The position numbers were made by a program, and so were the translations under genes. 39,408 bases of DNA from UHGV virus genome UHGV-0070365; one strand, written 5' to 3'. Below, in pieces: positions 1 through 39,408 of this stretch (position 1 is the stretch's first letter; each line of letters opens with the position of its first letter). The notes under the pieces are model-generated. The model was not told where the DNA came from. It worked only from the letters and a program-made list of their open reading frames with translations, and made no database searches. This stretch comes from a virus.

Positions 1-52
1 TTATCAATTTGTTGCAACGAACAGGTCACTATCAGTCAAAATAAAATCATTA
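1..52. promoter_or_regulatory. attL: attL P' arm: IHF-like site (ATCAATTTGTTG, 2-14) and Int arm-type sites (CAGGTCACTAT 22-32, CAGTCAAAAT 33-42); core lies just left of window
   Basis: Matches WATCAA-N4-TTR IHF consensus and lambda arm-type consensus, directly abutting the 3' end of int. Confidence 0.6.
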
Positions 53-1120
53 TTTGATTTCAATTTTGTCCCACTCCCTGCCTCTGTCATCACGATACTG
101 TGATGCCATGGTGTCCGACTTATGCCCGAGAAGATGTTGAGCAAACTTATCGCTTATCTGCTTCTCATAGAGTCTTGCAGACAAACTGCGCAACTCGTGA
201 AAGGTAGGCGGATCCCCTTCGAAGGAAAGACCTGATGCTTTTCGTGCGCGCATAAAATACCTTGATACTGTGCCGGATGAAAGCGGTTCACGACGAGTAG
301 ATGCAATTATGGTTTCTCCGCCAAGAATCTCTTTGCATTTATCAAGTGTTTCCTTCATTGATATCCCGAGGGCATCAACATGCAATGCTGTTGGGATGGC
401 AATTTTTACGCCTGTTTTGCTTTGCTCGACATAAAGATATCCATCTACGATATCAGACCACTTCATTTCGCATAAATCACCAACTCGCTGCCCGGTAACA
501 ACAGCCAGTTCCATTGCAAGTCTGAGCCAACATGGTGATGATTCTGCTGCTTGATAAATTTTCAGGTATTCGTCAGCCGTAAGTCTTGATCTCCTCACCT
601 CTGATTTTGCTGCGCGAGTGGCAGAGACCGGGTTTGTTGTTATATGGCCTTCAGCTATTGCCTCTCGGAATGCATCGCTCAGTGTTGATCTGATTAACTT
701 GGCTGACGCCGCCTTGCCCTCGTCTATGTATCCATTGAGCATTGCCGCAATTTCTTTTGTGGTGATGTTTTCAAGTGGAGCATCAGGCAGACCCCTCCTT
801 ATTGCTTTAATTTTGCTCATGTAATTTATGAGTGTCTTCTGCTTGATTCCTCTGCTGGCGAGGATTTTTTCGTAGCGATCAAGCCATGAATGTAACGTAA
901 CAGAATTATCACTGTTGATTCTTGCTGTCAGAGGCTTGTGTTTGTGTCCTGAAAATAACTCAATGTTGGCCTGTATAGCTTCAGTGATTGCTATCCTCCT
1001 GTCTCGGCCTAATCCAAACTCTTTACCCGTCCTTGGGTCCCTGTAGCAGTAATATCTATTGTTTCTTATATAAAGGTTAGGGGGTAAATCCCGGCGCTCA
1101 TGACTTCGCCTTCTTCCCAT
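50..1120 (-). CDS. int: Tyrosine integrase, lambda Int type (356 aa)
   Basis: Translation MGRRRSHERRDLPPNLYIRNN... ends ...HLLGHKSDTMASQYRDDRGREWDKIEIK; near-identical to lambda Int as recalled. Confidence 0.96.
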   Translation of the reverse strand: MGRRRSHERRDLPPNLYIRNNRYYCYRDPRTGKEFGLGRDRRIAITEAIQANIELFSGHKHKPLTARINSDNSVTLHSWLDRYEKILASRGIKQKTLINYMSKIKAIRRGLPDAPLENITTKEIAAMLNGYIDEGKAASAKLIRSTLSDAFREAIAEGHITTNPVSATRAAKSEVRRSRLTADEYLKIYQAAESSPCWLRLAMELAVVTGQRVGDLCEMKWSDIVDGYLYVEQSKTGVKIAIPTALHVDALGISMKETLDKCKEILGGETIIASTRREPLSSGTVSRYFMRARKASGLSFEGDPPTFHELRSLSARLYEKQISDKFAQHLLGHKSDTMASQYRDDRGREWDKIEIK

Positions 1121-32737: not shown

Positions 32738-33127
32738 CTAACATTTTCTTTTTACTTTTCCAACAAAAGCTTTGGTTGAATCCATATTTCCATAACCGGA
32801 AATGGTTTTTGACATTAAAACTGTTCCAGTAGGATGTATTACCCATGAGTCGATAACGCGTTGAGTTTCGCCATTCGCGCCGATTCCTATGATGGAGTTT
32901 TTAGACAATGCTTTGTAAGCCATGCCGCCCGCATCTGTCCCAGAATATGTGATGCTGGCATCTTCACCGCTTGTCTTAATGATGAATGTTCCACTAAAAC
33001 CATCTTCTTCCGGATGGAAATTATTTCGTTCTGAATAGCTTATTCCGCGCATATCTCCAACGACCCAGCACTCTGCTGTAGCCCCAAAAGATATGAATAA
33101 GAACATAGCAGCAAGAAATTGCTTCAC
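32738..33127 (-). CDS. Secreted/periplasmic protein of unknown function (129 aa, GTG start), paralog of rex-position protein
   Basis: SD TAAGGAGGT upstream of GTG; signal peptide (M)KQFLAAMFLFISFGATA; mature N-terminus ECWVV like ECWIV of 7358-7762 product. Confidence 0.6.
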   Translation of the reverse strand: MKQFLAAMFLFISFGATAECWVVGDMRGISYSERNNFHPEEDGFSGTFIIKTSGEDASITYSGTDAGGMAYKALSKNSIIGIGANGETQRVIDSWVIHPTGTVLMSKTISGYGNMDSTKAFVGKVKRKC

Positions 33128-33191
33128 ACCAACCTCCTTAGTTTTGAGCAGAATACCAGATGATAATGTGTAGTTGGAGTAGCGCGGTTGT

Positions 33192-33283
33192 AATGCAAGC
33201 ATTTTGTTTTAGTTTTATGCTTGCTTGTATGTGTGTACAGTGTATATAATGCAAGCATACATCACAACAAAGGTGCTTGCATT
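33192..33283. promoter_or_regulatory. Divergent promoter region with four copies of TGCAAGCA/TGCTTGCA palindromic motif (33192-33203, 33217-33227, 33248-33259, 33273-33284) and TATAAT at 33245-33250
   Basis: Repeated imperfect 12-bp palindromes AATGC-NN-GCATT spaced about 24-32 bp. Confidence 0.5.
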
Positions 33284-34252
33284 ATGACTGAAAAGAAAAG
33301 TGGCGAAGGGAAAGCTAAGGGCGGGATCGCTCGCGCAAAGTCGCTGACTAAAGAGCAGCGTTCTGAAATAGCAAAGAAAGCAGCTGCTGCAAGATGGAAA
33401 AGTAAGATTCTCAGGGCAACTCATCGTGGTAACTTTTTAGATGATTTTGGCATTGATGCTGAATGTTATGTACTGGATGACGAGTCGAAAACTGTCGTTG
33501 TTACGAAAACTGGATTATCTCAGTTGCTAGGGATTGGTGAACATGCCAGGGATTTAGATCAACTGCTTGGCGCTCAGTATATGAGCAAATACCGAGATCT
33601 AGAATTGCAGCGAAAAATGGAAAATCCCTATAAATTTCAACTTACTTCGAAGTCTAAAACCGTTCATCAAGCGTTAGGTTATGACATTACAGCAATTGTT
33701 GATATTGGTAGGGCACTAATAGAAGCCAAAGATAATGACGATCTACCACAATCACGGTTAAAGGCAGCCGCCGCAGCACAGAGACTTATTAATGCCTCCG
33801 CTAAGGCGGGAATTAAGGGGGTTGCGTATGCGCTTGCTGGTTATCGTCCAGAAGTTCAGGCTGTCATTGACGAGTTCAAAGCGTTTGTTCGTGAAGAGGC
33901 TCGTCAATATGAAAAGGAATTTCCAGATGAGCTATACGAGGAGTGGTATCGACTGTACGGCCTGAATAGGCCAGAGAAAGGACGGCCTATTCGTTTTGGG
34001 CAGCTAACCAACATGCAGATATACACCCCGCTAGCAAAGAGTAAAGGTAAAATCCTTGAACAAATTAGAGCCAGCCGAGACGAGAACGGAAAACAATCTG
34101 ATAAGTTGCATCTGTTCCTTTCTGAAATTGGTGTCAAGGCTTTGCGTCAGCATATCGGTAAGCTTCTTGGTGTCGCAGCGATGAGTGAGACAAGAGAAGA
34201 ATACGAAAAAGGAATAGAAAAGGTTTTCGGAAGAATGAAACCAGAAATCTAA
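33284..34252 (+). CDS. Uncharacterised protein with basic putative DNA-binding N-terminus (322 aa)
   Basis: N-terminal KGGIARAKSLTKEQRSEIAKKAAAARWKS; no TM segments; lies in sieA/immI position. Confidence 0.55.
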   Translation: MTEKKSGEGKAKGGIARAKSLTKEQRSEIAKKAAAARWKSKILRATHRGNFLDDFGIDAECYVLDDESKTVVVTKTGLSQLLGIGEHARDLDQLLGAQYMSKYRDLELQRKMENPYKFQLTSKSKTVHQALGYDITAIVDIGRALIEAKDNDDLPQSRLKAAAAAQRLINASAKAGIKGVAYALAGYRPEVQAVIDEFKAFVREEARQYEKEFPDELYEEWYRLYGLNRPEKGRPIRFGQLTNMQIYTPLAKSKGKILEQIRASRDENGKQSDKLHLFLSEIGVKALRQHIGKLLGVAAMSETREEYEKGIEKVFGRMKPEI

Positions 34253-34260
34253 TTATGAAA

Positions 34261-34282
34261 CCCACCGTCAGGTGGGTTTTTT
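34261..34282. terminator. Bidirectional terminator hairpin (CCCACC-GTCA-GGTGGG then T6) shared by convergent genes
   Basis: Perfect 6-bp stem; mnt stop codon lies in loop. Confidence 0.7.
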
Positions 34283-34519
34283 GTACAAATCCTTCAGCGT
34301 ATCAAACACCATCTTCTTAACAAGTTCAGACTGCTCATCAGCGATGCGTTCCGCATCGTCTCGATAGCCTGAAATTTTGGATGGCTTTGATACAGCATCA
34401 GTCACTATCTGAACTAATTCTGAATTAAGAGAGCGGCCATTGGATTTGGCTCGCTGTTTTAGTTTTTCCTTTAATTCGTAAGGTAGCCGCAGATTAAATT
34501 GCGGGTCATCTCTTCCCAT
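34268..34519 (-). CDS. mnt: Mnt repressor, ribbon-helix-helix (83 aa)
   Basis: MGRDDPQFNLRLPYELKEKLKQRAKSNGRSLNSELVQIV...YRDDAERIADEQSELVKKMVFDTLKDLYKKPT, P22 Mnt-like. Confidence 0.85.
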   Translation of the reverse strand: MGRDDPQFNLRLPYELKEKLKQRAKSNGRSLNSELVQIVTDAVSKPSKISGYRDDAERIADEQSELVKKMVFDTLKDLYKKPT

Positions 34520-34582
34520 TCTTGATGCCTCACTTTTGTAAGTGGATCGGCATCATATGATCTACTGGTTATATCCACAATA

Positions 34583-34597
34583 AGACCACTGTGGTCT
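34583..34597. promoter_or_regulatory. Omnt: Mnt operator-like perfect palindrome AGACCAC-T-GTGGTCT
   Basis: 15-bp palindrome between mnt and tailspike start. Confidence 0.6.
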
Positions 34598-34654
34598 CAA
34601 TGACGCATTGCCGTAGCCATGCTGCGGTGATTCCTTGTATCTGGAGCAAATTAA

Positions 34655-36634
34655 ATGACAGACATTACAGCCAATGTGATCGTATCAATGCCATCGCAAC
34701 TCTTCACTATGGCGCGTTCTTTTAAAGCCGTAGCCAATGGCAAAATTTATATCGGAAAAATTGACACTGACCCGGTAAATCCTGAAAACCAGATTCAGGT
34801 TTATGTGGAGAACGAAGACGGTTCTCACGTCCCTGTTTCGCAACCAATCATCATTAACGCTGCTGGATATCCGGTATATAACGGACAGATTGCCAAGTTC
34901 GTAACTGTGCAAGGCCATTCTATGGCTGTTTATGATGCATACGGTGCTCAGCAGTTTTATTTTCCGAATGTTCTGAAGTACGATCCTGACAGATTGCGAC
35001 AGGATTTAGCGCTTCCAACAGGCGCTGAGCTTGTAGGCGTGCAACCACAAGGAAATCTTTCGCAAGTCATTCAGTTTGTATCTCCAGAGCAGTTTGGCGC
35101 CATCGGAGATGGTACGGTTCATCCATTATCTGAGCGTTATGCGACTCTTGCAGCAGCGCAGGCAGTATACCCATTCGTAACATCTCTGACGCAGACCATC
35201 GACTGGGCTGCATGCCAGTTGGCAGAAAACCTTAACAGGAAGGTTAGGCCCATTCATGTTGCCAAGTTTAAAAAATATCACCTTGGTGACAACTATCTCA
35301 AGTTGGGCCCATATTCTACATGGATTGCCCTACCGTTAAATGACTTCGTATGGGATACAGGATTTATCCGCAGCGTACCTACAGATTATTCCTCATACGC
35401 ATTTGGGCAGTTGTGCATTGTTAGAGTCGGTGACGCGTCAGAATTTACTGGTGATGGCGTTACCGGAAGCAATGTGCGAAATATTACCTTTAAGGGGTTT
35501 CAGCTTAGATGGGATGTGGCCAGACACACTCCTTCTAAGGGCGTTGGGACCATCTGCCTGCATATGAATAATGCCATGAAGATGAATCTTGATGTTTGCC
35601 TTTATGGCGGTGAGTTCGCTGCTTTCGGGTACTCATGCTGGGGCACTCAGGGTAGTATAAAAATAGACTCATGCCATAAGGGGATATATTGGGATGCCGT
35701 GAGTAAAACCCCGGAAAAATCCACAGAGGGAGGCAGCACAACGTCGCATAATATTGAATTACAAATCGACCATACGATTTTCCCTGTCTACCTTAGAAAT
35801 TGTAACTACGCTAAATTCCACGGCTGGTTCGAAGGAGCCTTGACGTCGATGGCTCACTATGATTACACAAACGAGACTGCAATGGGCATTACCCTTGATT
35901 CGTGTGACGGGGTAATTTTTGATATGGGAGTAGAGGCGTGGCAAGGAGCTTTACTGAATTGCATAGGTTCCGTTGAGGCTGAGTTTTCTTTTGCGATGCT
36001 TCCTAGTGAGATTCTACCATCGGGACTAGGTACGCAGGGGGTTGCGTATCGCGTAAGGTCGTTAATGTCTGCAACTGATGAGACGGCGATACCTAACGCT
36101 GATAGAAGTCTGTCTTATGTTAACGGATACAGCACCGTAACGATTAAGCACTGGCAGCCCGTTGTGAATCCATGGCCGACAGATGGAACAACGAAATATG
36201 TTACATCTGTTGACACAACAAGCAAAGTGACCTTCCAGGATTGCGGAGTAAACTTAGGCGGCGCTCCTGCACTCGGCGGCGGTGATGCTAGACTCAAGCT
36301 AGCACCAGCTAACTACGCTAATATAGAGGCTATAGGCGGGATGTACATAGAGCGCTATTTAAAGCCAAGCTCCTCATACGATTATGCAGGGAGATCTGTA
36401 TCTGTGCATAATTCGTGGCAGGGAGCTAAGATTGCTGCTGATGGCACTGTTACCATAACAGCTCCAGCAAACTTTAAAATAGTCGATTTTACGGCTATGG
36501 TAGGTGTCAGCACAAATGCTCAGCCATCCGGAGTTGGAATAAAATCCAGAAGCGATGCGTCTATAGTCCTACAAACTACAGCTAACGCGTCCTATGGTAT
36601 TAACTATAAATTGTGGGTTAAGCCAACATTGTAA
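34655..36634 (+). CDS. Tailspike protein: P22/Sf6-type N-terminal head-binding domain plus divergent receptor-binding domain (659 aa)
   Basis: N-terminus [59 protein letters not shown] matches P22 gp9 head-binding domain; remainder dissimilar. Confidence 0.85.
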
Positions 36635-36649
36635 AGGCCCTTACGGGCC

Positions 36650-38080
36650 TTATTTAAGCATTACATGAAAATGGTTGCCTGAGTGGATTATGAAGTAACG
36701 GCTATCCTTAAATACAGTAGTGTCGTTATTATTTTTCATTGATTCCATCTCTGCAAAAATTCCATAATGTTTCAGCATTATCATTCCTGACCAGTTATAC
36801 AAAGGCATTACCATCCACTTAAGGGAAGGGAATCTCTTAAATTCCATGTCAGTAGAGACGGCGGTAGATATCTGGCCAGAGATAAACACCTTTTTGCCAT
36901 CCAGTTTAGGTGGCAACGAAGATGCTATATCATAGAACACCTTATCTTCGAGCGAGCGCTGATGCTTACTTGCATTTCCATATGCAGACGAGTAAGACAA
37001 GGAGAACATTACAGGAATAATGCATGCGATAGTTGTTAGTCTTTTTGATGGCAACATTGATGCCAGATAGCCGATAAGCAGCATAAACCCCGGAACTCCC
37101 ATCATTACGCGAGGAGCAACCACAGTCTTATCTATAAATATAAATGGCCCAGCAATTGAGAACAGTGTCACTGCAATGCCCGAAGAAAACACAGCAAAAC
37201 CAATAATTTTTGATGTTAAAGAAAGCTCAGACTTTGCCACTCTGAAAGACAGAATTATCAAGCCAACAGTCGCAACTACAATAATCAGTACCCAAGCCAT
37301 GTAAAGCGAGTCATTCATGAGGCTTGATGCGATATTCCAGAATCTTTCAAAGTTGTAAAGCAGGCTTTTAGCCGGATCATCAGCTTTTAATACAAGATCT
37401 GAGTGAACATTCTTCGACAAGAAGAATGGGGTCACACCCTTCATGTAGATTATAATCCCAATAATTGCGCTGGCCGCTCTTTCGGCAGACATTCGCAATG
37501 CATCTGTTCCGCTTCCCCTACTGTAAAGTACGTAAGCTATTTCTATGGCGCACAAAGATAGGAACACATTTATTGTTGCTTGATAGAGACTCAAGGCAAG
37601 CACAAGGCATACAGCCCCAAATAGCACCCTAAACGCCAACTTCCATGATGCTGCCATTTTAGAGTAAGGTAAAACGGCAAGGAAAACTCCAAGCATCATG
37701 GGGAGGGAGTCAAAGTGATAAGAAAGATTTTGAAGGAAGAAAGGGCTTAATGAAAATAAAGAAAAAACTAATCCTGAAGCAATGCCGCGACTGATTGCAA
37801 ACCTGCAATAAAGAATGACTGACGAAGCACCAAGGAATGTGCCGGCAAGTATCAGTGATAATGGGAAAGAATCGACAACAAATCCAGATCCAAACCCAAG
37901 TGACATGACAACAACATCAGATAAAGGTCGGCCAAGCACGCCCCAATACGCTTCACCATTCGCAGCCCTAAGTATATCATCCTGATATAGAACGCCTGAA
38001 AGCAGGATTGGCAACACAAAGAGTGCTGTAATCAAGGAAATTACCCAACACCCGCTATCAAATTTATTCAACTTCAACAT
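36650..38080 (-). CDS. Serotype-specific O-antigen glucosyltransferase (GtrC-type, polytopic membrane protein, 476 aa)
   Basis: Multi-TM protein directly downstream of gtrB in a gtrA-gtrB-gtrX operon. Confidence 0.7.
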
Positions 38081-38999
38081 TTTTATTCCTTTGTTTTAGA
38101 ATAAATCTCGGGCGCTGCTTGGACTCAACATATATCCTGCCAATGTACTCACCAAGAACGCCAATGCCAATCAATTGAACCCCGCCAAGGAACAGAATAG
38201 AGACAAGCAGGGATGGATATCCACGTACAGCATTGCCGAAGGCCAGTGTGTCGATAATCATCCAAGCACCGTACAGAAACGCCACTCCAGCTACGAACAG
38301 GCCAATGTAAGTCCACATGCGCAACGGGAAAGTAGAGAAGCTTGTGATTCCCTCAAGTGCCAGGTTCCACAGTTTCCATCCATTAAATTTAGTACTGCCT
38401 GCCACTCGTTCTGCGCGTGCATACTCGACAACATCAGTGCGGCCGCCAACCCAACTCAGCACACCTTTCATAAAAAGGTTGCGCTCTGGCATAAGCTTAA
38501 TGTTTTCGACAACTTCACGGCTCATTAACCGGAAATCGCCGACATTCTCCTCGATCTTTGGGTTGCTTATTTTGTTGTGCAATTTATAAAACCACTCTGC
38601 CGTTTTGCGTTTCAGTCGTCCGTCAGTTGAGCGATCAGTTCGCTTAGCCAGCACCATATCAGAGCCTGCCTGCCACTTTTCGATGAGGTGGGGAATAACC
38701 TCAATCGGATCTTGCAGGTCAACATCAATTGGAATTACAGCATCTCCGGTTGCATGGTCTAGCCCTGCAAACAATGCTGGTTCTTTACCAAAGTTTCGTG
38801 TAAATGACAGCGGAACAACCAGCGGGTCTGAAACAGCCAGAGCATTAATAATTGACTCCGTAGCGTCTTTGCTTCCGTCATTTATGAAAACAATTTCCAC
38901 TTCATATGGCTTCAACTCTTTGAACTCACGTACCGTTTTATAAAAAATTGGTATCGCTTCTTCTTCATTGAAGACAGGAACTACAAGAGATATCTTCAT
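38064..38999 (-). CDS. gtrB: Bactoprenol glucosyltransferase GtrB (311 aa)
   Basis: GT2 family motifs (VVPVFNEEE, DxD), C-terminal TM helices. Confidence 0.9.
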
Positions 39000-39358
39000 T
39001 TCGCATCCCTAAAGACAATGAACTTTGAATAGACGAAACCGCACACCAGGCTGATGGCGGAGAAGGTGACGAGAGTGACAATTGGAGGAAGTGAACATCT
39101 ATCAGCAGCCCATCCAACAGTTGCACTCAGTGTTCCCATGAACCCGACATATAACATGTAGCGCATCGTTGTAGTTGATGCTTTGAATGTGAATTTTGCA
39201 TTCGCGAAGAAGCTAAAACTCACAGCCACAACAAAACCTGCGAAGTTTGCCAGAGCCTGATTGGTATGCGCGGCATAGATACATACACCAAAAACCACCC
39301 AGTGTATAAGGGTGTTCAGCACGCCAATAGAGGTGTACTTTGCAAATAGTTTTAACAT
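38996..39358 (-). CDS. gtrA: GtrA flippase (120 aa)
   Basis: [59 protein letters not shown]...; 4-TM GtrA family. Confidence 0.9.
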
Positions 39359-39408
39359 TTCTTCTATCAGCTAATAATCAAAGGCATGAAGTCTATCATC
39401 CAAGTCTC

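Follow-up and report, generated by a model that had tools for sequence, protein, structure and literature searches.

The distal end of the window, by which we mean the whole stretch of 39,408 nucleotides analysed here (UHGV virus genome UHGV-0070365), carries a tailspike gene and, convergent to it, a three-gene gtr operon. The tailspike gene occupies positions 34655-36634 on the plus strand and encodes 659 aa. It is followed on the minus strand by gtrC (36650-38080, 476 aa), encoding a type-specific polytopic membrane glycosyltransferase, gtrB (38064-38999, 311 aa), encoding an undecaprenyl-phosphate (Und-P) glucosyltransferase of the GT2 type, and gtrA (38996-39358, 120 aa), encoding a small membrane protein and putative Und-P-glucose flippase. 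All four open reading frames are intact in this copy, and the coordinates given for them in an earlier note, made from the letters alone, are correct to the base. The gene identities proposed there, namely a P22/Sf6-type head-binding domain, a receptor-binding part of neither the P22 nor the Sf6 type, and a convergent gtrA-gtrB-gtrC operon, were likewise borne out. The Pfam matches of all four genes lie far above the curated cut-offs, and identical or near-identical copies in E. coli genomes and assemblies exclude chance reading frames.

The upstream genes follow the P22-like order coat, gp4, gp10, gp26, gp7, gp20, gp16, P63C and mnt, with the Pfam domains P22_CoatProtein, P22_Tail-4, Phage_stabilise, P22_gp7, Inj_translocase and Phage_P22_gp16, then P63C and Mnt. 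The tailspike gene lies after the ejection-protein genes and an immI-like region, as in a P22-like genome. A contig whose sequence equals that of the window from 34201 to 39408 continues downstream into ybhB-bioA, the prophage in strain EC2 is flanked by the lambda core GCTTTTTTATACTAA, and in locus L001 the lambda att core is located ~330 bp upstream of gtrA. The window holds an entire temperate phage of the P22-like kind, an Escherichia prophage inserted at the lambda attachment site, and the locus forms the host-recognition and surface-sugar-modification end of this prophage. Loci of this kind are already well known; what is new here are uncharacterised variants of the tailspike and of the sugar transferase within a known type of system.

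The first 114 residues of the tailspike (34655-34996, plus strand) make up the head-binding, or particle-attachment, domain. Pfam Head_binding (PF09008) matches residues 1-113 over the full length of the profile (E 4.4e-67), and the N-terminus aligns with residues 1-119 of PDB 7sg7, a 623-aa 'gene 14 protein' (E 4e-65) that we take to be the Sf6 tailspike. Sf6 gp14 (7sg7, 2vbk) represents the closest solved N-terminal domain, with ~88% identity over residues 1-119 as counted from the alignment. The N-terminal domains of P22 tailspikes in the PDB align as well, and identity to P22 gp9 over residues 1-113 amounts to 75%. At the DNA level, homology to other P22-like E. coli prophages extends from 34611 to ~35009 and ends there.

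Past residue ~115, the tailspike shows no significant similarity in sequence to its P22 counterpart, and in a PDB sequence search the solved Sf6, P22 and HK620-type tailspikes match the window protein over residues 1-119 only. The earlier note had suggested a fold prediction of residues 120-659. The model of the receptor-binding part (residues 115-659; 34997-36634, plus strand), calculated as a monomer, consists of a short linker, a right-handed parallel beta-helix and a C-terminal beta-rich domain, an ordinary tailspike fold. The Sf6 tailspike body is a beta-helix as well (Foldseek E ~1e-7), although the two bodies are only ~10% identical. LKA1 gp49 (4ru4), phi297 (4ru5), Acinetobacter AS12 gp42 (6eu4) and CBA120 TSP2 (5w6p) share at most 17% identity with the window tailspike at TM-scores of 0.3-0.5; neither specificity nor catalytic mechanism can be transferred from them. 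With the closest tailspike of an isolated phage at 40% identity and no characterised tailspike identical, the earlier description of a divergent receptor-binding part stands. The family alignment contains near-invariant acidic residues, among them E393, D403, E407 and E427 in full-length numbering (E279, D289, E293 and E313 of the 545-residue construct). NCBIfam lacks models for the tailspike, GtrC and GtrA. The body is a predicted O-antigen depolymerase, its beta-helix most likely binding and cleaving an O-antigen.

The operon is tightly packed in the order gtrA-gtrB-gtrC and adjoins the prophage attachment site. The gtrA stop and gtrB start overlap by 4 nt (ATGA), and gtrB and gtrC overlap by 17 nt. 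A defect in the operon, which the earlier note had named as evidence against its own proposal, was not found. GtrA matches GtrA_DPMS_TM (PF04138, E 2e-13) and is 91-92% identical to GtrA of SfV and SfII. GtrB matches Glycos_transf_2 (PF00535, E 2e-31), with 91% amino acid identity to GtrB of SfV and SfII and 88% to that of P22, and is 99.7% identical to gtrB of an E. coli int-gtrABC element. Because of the 91% identity to the SfV and SfII proteins, the transferred sugar is presumably glucose. GtrC, the polytopic product of the type-specific third gene, matches Glucos_trans_II (PF14264, E 5e-25), adopts a GT-C fold in the model and carries the conserved first-loop Asp-Asp, with D34, D35 and R38 invariant. 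It is 24% identical to P22 GtrC in a pairwise alignment (E ~1e-33), whereas blastp detected no similarity to GtrI, GtrII, GtrIV or GtrV (E ≥ 2). A phmmer search and a profile of 40 homologues, run against six known proteins (a set without GtrX and GtrIc), likewise recovered P22 GtrC and none of the others. Within this set, GtrC is an unusual type-specific transferase.

The region upstream of gtrA lies partly past the window end and was read in loci L100 and L001, which place the -35 region and the sole GATC site (-58 from the gtrA ATG) just outside the window. Dam/OxyR phase-variable gtr operons of Salmonella and P22 contain four GATC in OxyR half-sites upstream of gtrA (PMC3688519). These sites lie at -135, -122, -71 and -58 in P22; with one of the four present here, phase variation of the P22 type is unsupported.

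Between the tailspike gene and gtrC, a GC-rich hairpin (AAGGCCC-TTAC-GGGCCTT, 36634-36651) fills the 15-bp gap separating the convergent stop codons. Its folding energy is -12.6 kcal/mol on the plus strand and -14.4 kcal/mol on the minus strand (z ~-2). The hairpin emerged from a junction alignment of related loci and was not called by a consensus terminator scan because its T-run is short. An equivalent hairpin occupies the same position in six of seven related loci examined, being absent from the Arsenophonus locus L002, and its stem arms vary jointly across loci (GGCCC/GGGCC versus GCCCC/GGGGC). The conserved position and the paired changes suggest that the hairpin is likely a shared bidirectional terminator.

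Among known systems, Salmonella phage P22 has the same order and orientation, with the gene 9 tailspike followed on the opposite strand by gtrC-gtrB-gtrA and then by the attachment site. Its GtrA is 79% identical to the window protein, and the GtrC proteins belong to the same Pfam family. In contrast, the P22 receptor-binding part is unrelated in sequence to the window body, so an endorhamnosidase role has no support, and GtrC has diverged so far from P22 GtrC that the same acceptor or linkage cannot be inferred. The prophages also differ in their insertion, with P22 using its own attachment site and the window prophage the lambda site with a lambda-type core. Shigella flexneri phages SfI, SfII, SfIV and SfV follow the same three-gene logic (gtrA-gtrB-gtr[type]) and share 84-85% nucleotide identity with the 3' part of gtrB and gtrA, but their gtr genes adjoin tail-fibre genes or IS elements rather than a P22-type tailspike. 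Sf6 converts its host by O-acetylation (oac), not by glucosylation. Escherichia phage HF4s, an isolated P22-like coliphage (a Lederbergvirus of E. coli 4s), carries a tailspike gene, then convergent gtrCBA and int. Among phages it gives the closest DNA match (88.6%) for the 3' part of gtrB together with gtrA, yet neither its tailspike body nor its GtrC is related to the window counterparts.

Enterobacter and Obesumbacterium prophages contain a 4.3-kb counterpart of the receptor-binding part plus gtrCBA, with 77-83% nucleotide identity. An E. hormaechei locus (L082) shares 35078-39358 with the window at 83% and an Obesumbacterium locus (L085) shares 35045-39360 at 77%; genes next to the shared segments have tape-measure/NlpC_P60 or sheath-initiator Pfam domains, which indicate that these prophages are long-tailed phages. 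Conversely, the P22-like prophages L105-L107, HF4s and P22 share with the window only 34611 to ~35009 and ~38095/38130 to 39408 and differ in between. As read from these alignments, other P22-like prophages of E. coli retain both flanks and swap the tailspike body and gtrC jointly. Since the conserved head-binding domain and gtrB/gtrA flank this segment, homologous recombination can exchange both at once. The window copy itself is a mosaic whose segments resemble E. coli, Cronobacter and Enterobacter, with 99-100% identity to E. coli locus L087 over 37718-39408 and 95-99% to C. malonaticus locus L083 over 36968-37568.

GtrC proteins of this type occur in E. coli, E. marmotae, Cronobacter, Enterobacter, Mixta and Obesumbacterium, and in all eight distinct loci examined a gtrC of this family faces a tailspike gene, or what remains of one, tail to tail. 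A scan of species-representative genome contigs with the GtrC alignment returned almost only relatives at 24-30% identity (Pseudomonas, Salinicola and others) and one Arsenophonus locus, and says little about the cassette because such genomes rarely carry a prophage of this kind. The particular pairing of body and gtrC is not strict. Loci L083, L086 and L089 have GtrC proteins that are 82-90% identical beside tailspike bodies that are only 40-46% identical, which rules out strict co-evolution of the two. Strict co-evolution is also contradicted by the pairing of the body family with other O-antigen modifiers: in L105, a body of the same broad family (38% identity) stands beside an unrelated WsfD-like GtrC, and in L102 and L104, bodies at 58-74% identity stand beside an acyltransferase-3/SGNH protein (O-acetyltransferase). 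By these comparisons, the coupling appears looser than the receptor-masking story implies.

We consider it probable (about 0.8) that the locus is a host-specificity and lysogenic-conversion module, in which the tailspike recognises an O-antigen and gtrABC glucosylates it in the lysogen. Receptor masking is the established model for such modules (PMC10408124, PMC3688519, PMC4413052) and, by analogy, plausible here. In Lederberg- and Uetakeviruses a modification gene lies behind the receptor-binding protein (PMC10408124), and the P22 gtrABC operon reduces P22 infectivity (PMC3688519). On this model, the conserved N-terminal domain anchors the tailspike in the virion, and the beta-helix body would bind and cleave the O-antigen. 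In the lysogen, the convergent operon would add a glucose branch to the O-antigen of the tailspike: GtrB would make Und-P-glucose on the cytoplasmic side, GtrA would flip it across the membrane, and the GT-C enzyme GtrC would transfer the glucose onto a specific O-unit residue in the periplasm. We infer these steps from the 91% identity that GtrA and GtrB show to their Shigella counterparts and, in the case of GtrC, from the fold in the model and the Asp-Asp kept in the first loop. The branch would alter the serological factor and would probably make adsorption or cleavage less efficient, for the tailspike of this phage itself as well as for other phages that depend on O-antigen. Recombination in the conserved flanks would exchange receptor specificity together with receptor modification.

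A bolder version, which we hold only tentatively and think rather unlikely, would make tailspike body, hairpin and gtrCBA a portable 'recognise-and-mask' cassette that moves as a unit among prophages of the podo-, sipho- and myovirus types across enterobacterial genera, with GtrC attaching an undescribed glucose branch to an O-antigen of the O29 family or a related one and so creating a new O factor. If true, a single recombination would give a phage a new receptor specificity and the matching receptor masking. Tailspike bodies of temperate phages are used for O-serogroup prediction and for retargeting phages or tailocins, and gtr operons produce O-antigen variants that are invisible to gene-cluster-based serotyping. 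With this module the catalogue gains a tailspike type and a GtrC type that are both uncharacterised. The locus is also a clear case of two specificities exchanged between conserved flanks, with no new mechanism.

The complete E. coli genomes carrying the module are four genomes of one lineage, whose O-antigen cluster carries an O29-family annotation and a frameshift in wzy, so that the lineage may lack polymerised O-antigen. A link between the tailspike and an O-serogroup was dropped, as one carrier lineage makes no association. A presumed resemblance of S. dysenteriae type 11 to O29 found no literature support and was dropped as well. The O29 antigen has a two-residue side branch, according to PMC7685785.

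A lesser but real possibility is that the operon serves mainly the host or the lysogen population rather than exclusion of the same phage, the adjacent tailspike not being its primary target. The benefit might lie in antigenic change, in defence against unrelated O-antigen-dependent phages, or in shielding the lysogen O-antigen from the tailspikes of virions released spontaneously. In its favour, gtrABC survives intact in defunct prophages: in EC2 and in three wastewater strains from Galapagos, the phage genes between the recombinase gene and the P63C gene have been lost through an IS1-associated deletion, the three wastewater strains carry a premature tailspike stop (Q46*), and the int-gtrABC elements L087 and L088 keep only a C-terminal tailspike remnant beside the operon. 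The shuffling of gtrC and tailspike bodies relative to one another points the same way, as does Salmonella prophage BTP1, a precedent for a prophage gene that sets the composition and length of the lysogen O-antigen; BTP1 gtrC is reported to be required to keep O-antigen length, a gtrC mutant loses it, and this precedent points to length protection (PMC4413052). Against it stands the tail-to-tail arrangement in eight of eight loci, mostly with the shared hairpin, a tight linkage that is the outcome expected from co-selection of both functions. Host benefit and self-exclusion are compatible with each other.

Two other readings depart further from the conversion module. That the tailspike targets a capsule or other exopolysaccharide, leaving the operon as unrelated cargo, appears improbable; the structural matches do include many capsule depolymerases (Acinetobacter AS12 gp42 and Klebsiella depolymerases), and the best PHROG match is labelled 'colanic acid degradation', though it spans residues 1-164 only. 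Still less probable is a decaying remnant without present function, as might be read from the IS1 truncation of all four complete E. coli genomes and the early tailspike stop in three of them. The window copy instead has four intact reading frames and belongs to a P22-like prophage of full length. An identical tailspike protein was found on 12 contigs (with the window gene order at the two places inspected) and the exact GtrC sequence is recorded on 66, the catalytic-loop residues of GtrC are conserved, and gtrABC is intact in every one of the four truncated remnants.

The genes upstream of the tailspike in the window encode P22 coat, gp4, gp10, gp26, gp7, gp20 and gp16 domains, followed by a 154-aa unknown ORF, a P63C-domain protein (33284-34252, plus strand) and an 83-aa Mnt-type repressor with Arc and Repressor_Mnt domains (34268-34519, minus strand). 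A 356-aa integrase gene (50-1120, minus strand) lies at the opposite window end from the gtr operon. A metagenome contig, L100, has the same sequence as the window from 34201 to 39408 before running on into ybhB-bioA-bioB. Furthermore, in E. coli EC2 (locus L001) the element lies between ybhC and ybhB and has a copy of GCTTTTTTATACTAA, which we take to be the lambda att core, on either side (L001 2249 and 13039); these copies correspond to positions just outside both window ends. The P22-like phage therefore uses the lambda attachment site, and together these observations identify the window as a complete P22-like prophage at that site, cut about 50 bp beyond its first and last genes.

The 154-aa ORF (32738-33202, minus strand), flanked by the gp16-like and P63C genes, sits approximately where P22 presumably has sieA, and may be an exclusion or moron gene. 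A Pfam search with this ORF gave no match; its PHROG is phrog_2651, for which no function is assigned (E 1.6e-60), and a hydrophobic segment resembling a signal sequence lies at about residues 38-55. The immI-like region (33221-34519) contains neither an arc nor an ant gene. The P63C gene occupies the spot of arc and the antirepressor in two related P22-like E. coli prophages (L105 and L106).

All four genes of the tailspike-gtr module were found exactly where the earlier note had placed them, and Pfam assignments, all well over the curated cut-offs, bear out their proposed identities. More specifically, these are the tailspike (34655-36634, plus strand; 659 aa), with Head_binding on residues 1-113 (E 4.4e-67), and, on the minus strand, gtrC (36650-38080; 476 aa; Glucos_trans_II, E 5e-25), gtrB (38064-38999; 311 aa; Glycos_transf_2) and gtrA (38996-39358; 120 aa; GtrA_DPMS_TM). 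The gtrA and gtrB genes overlap by ATGA, and gtrB and gtrC by 17 nt. The convergent tailspike and gtrC stop codons are separated by 15 bp, where a GC hairpin (36634-36651; -12.6 and -14.4 kcal/mol) probably forms a shared bidirectional terminator. It is kept in six of seven related loci, with both stem arms altered together, and is missing in the Arsenophonus locus.

The tailspike was said to combine a P22/Sf6 head-binding N-terminus with a receptor-binding part unlike either, and both halves of this description hold. Besides the Head_binding match, the N-terminal domain shares about 88% of residues 1-119, as counted in the alignment, with PDB 7sg7, presumably the Sf6 tailspike, and is 75% identical to the P22 domain. 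From about residue 115 onward, no similarity was found to the P22 and HF4s tailspikes; solved Sf6, P22 and HK620-type structures match the N-terminus only, and PHROGs families span essentially this region alone. The DNA of the body (residues 115-659) had zero matches among phage records. At the protein level, its best match in an isolated phage is ZCEC5 (40%), well short of identity to a characterised tailspike, followed by two Proteus phages and coliphages C1 and S192 (36% each). The body thus has the modelled fold of an ordinary tailspike and no close characterised relative.

GtrB is 91% identical to GtrB of the serotype-converting phages SfV and SfII, and GtrA 91-92% identical to theirs, so the donor is almost certainly Und-P-glucose. 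Alignment of the 476-aa GtrC, as the earlier note had proposed, revealed no significant similarity to GtrI, GtrII, GtrIV, GtrV or HF4s GtrC by blastp, phmmer or a profile of its own family. It is 24% identical to P22 GtrC. Each serogroup appears to have its own specific GtrC, and half of the glucose-side-branched E. coli O-units are known or proposed to receive glucose via Gtr genes outside the O-antigen cluster (PMC7685785). The gtr promoter falls just beyond the window end (39408) and was read in L100 (14705-15004) and L001. P22 has four GATC sites upstream of gtrA, at -135, -122, -71 and -58, whereas L100 and L001 have only that at -58. The Dam/OxyR phase-variation signature, as defined in PMC3688519, is therefore absent there, which leads us to predict non-phase-variable gtr expression. 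Across related gtr operons, the signature looks to have been lost by degrees.

The same arrangement of a tailspike and a convergent gtr operon is found in P22, and the pairing of tailspike and modification gene has been described, as has the passage of receptor-binding domains from one phage genus to another (PMC10408124). Within an already known arrangement, the module represents a tailspike type and a GtrC type that are both uncharacterised. GtrC homologues with 82-90% identity occur in Cronobacter malonaticus, Enterobacter hormaechei, E. cloacae, Obesumbacterium proteus, Mixta and E. coli. We compared eight separate loci whose gtrC belongs to this family (L002, L082, L083 and L085-L089). 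All eight carry a tailspike gene or remnant convergent to gtrC; the bodies fall into the same broad family, and the stop codons are 13-16 bp apart where gene calls exist. Their N-terminal adaptors and neighbouring genes vary: PF09008 adaptors occur in P22-like elements, PF18668 adaptors adjoin tape-measure and NlpC_P60 genes, and PF18668 or no Pfam adaptor is found beside baseplate or sheath-initiator genes.

The coupling is looser in detail. In L083, L086 and L089, GtrC is 82-90% identical and the bodies merely 40-46%, with the homology break within the final ~30 gtrC codons. L105 has a body from that broad family (38% identity) beside an unrelated WsfD-like GtrC. Furthermore, Shigella dysenteriae and E. 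coli prophages whose lysis cassette differs encode a 764-766-aa tailspike (L102 8393-10252, L104 8399-10258) whose body is 58% (L102) and 74% (L104) identical to that of the window. Next in the same orientation come the gene for a 619-aa acyltransferase-3/SGNH protein and then a holin/GH19 lysis cassette, so that here a relative of the window tailspike has another O-antigen modifier as its partner. The recurrence of such bodies beside several O-antigen modifiers supports a general rule that the tailspike adjoins an O-antigen modifier, and argues for the O-antigen as the tailspike receptor. This adjacency does not prove that gtr glucosylation blocks the window tailspike. The earlier suggestion that the phage recognises an O-antigen which the lysogen then modifies, excluding superinfection, is plausible and is the standard model for such modules. 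P22 gtrABC is reported to lower P22 infectivity (PMC3688519), and a BTP1 gtrC mutant to lose O-antigen length (PMC4413052).

At the sequence level, the recombination architecture of the module is tidy, and there is evidence that exchange across genera has been recent. E. hormaechei L082 and Obesumbacterium L085 each match the window in one contiguous stretch (35078-39358 at 83% and 35045-39360 at 77% nucleotide identity), the common part beginning just past the adaptor and ending at the start codon of gtrA. Both loci keep the proximal GATC pair, at about -71 and -58. The P22-like E. coli prophages L105-L107, HF4s and P22 share with the window only the head-binding region and 3' gtrB plus gtrA, with a different body and gtrC in between; such conserved flanks permit joint replacement of both specificity genes. 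The window copy itself reads as a patchwork. Its 37718-39408 segment (gtrC 5' end, gtrB and gtrA) shows 99-100% identity to the int-gtrABC element L087 of E. coli, which adjoins a formate/nitrite-transporter-family gene and mlaA, gtrC segments within 36968-37568 are 95-99% identical at the nucleotide level to C. malonaticus prophage L083, and parts of the tailspike are 95-98% identical to E. hormaechei. The L083 and L087 matches indicate that recombination took place very recently, across genus boundaries as well. That gtr genes recombine and are shuffled has been described (PMC3688519).

Of 5426 complete E. coli genomes, four carry the whole 4.75-kb block, namely EC2 (urinary tract infection, Australia) and three Galapagos wastewater strains; tailspike-body DNA was absent from the other complete genomes, bar one weak partial match. 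The tailspike protein was read in identical form on 12 assembled contigs; at the two places shown, the surrounding gene order is P22-like and the site is that of lambda. A database entry for a 'Caudoviricetes sp.' tail protein has the same sequence. For GtrC, exact copies are on record from 66 E. coli contigs, with close variants in E. marmotae and Cronobacter. All four genomes have an IS1-associated deletion of the phage genes between the recombinase and P63C genes, IS1 separating the truncated remains of both. The wastewater strains additionally carry a tailspike Q46* stop (C to T, window position 34790) and an ISKpn26 insertion. The sites concerned are L001 6509-7598 in EC2 and L099 18509-19598 and 20001-20435 in the wastewater strains. 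The gtrABC genes are intact in all four; the conversion genes look to have been retained by the host. Annotation places the O-antigen cluster of EC2 (L098) in the O29 family (wzx, wzy, fnlA, wbjC, wecB) and marks its wzy as frameshifted (L098 2222-3384), and EC2 may make no polymerised O-antigen while keeping gtrABC. As one lineage, it does not establish the tailspike receptor. IS4 and IS1 copies adjoin gnd in this cluster.
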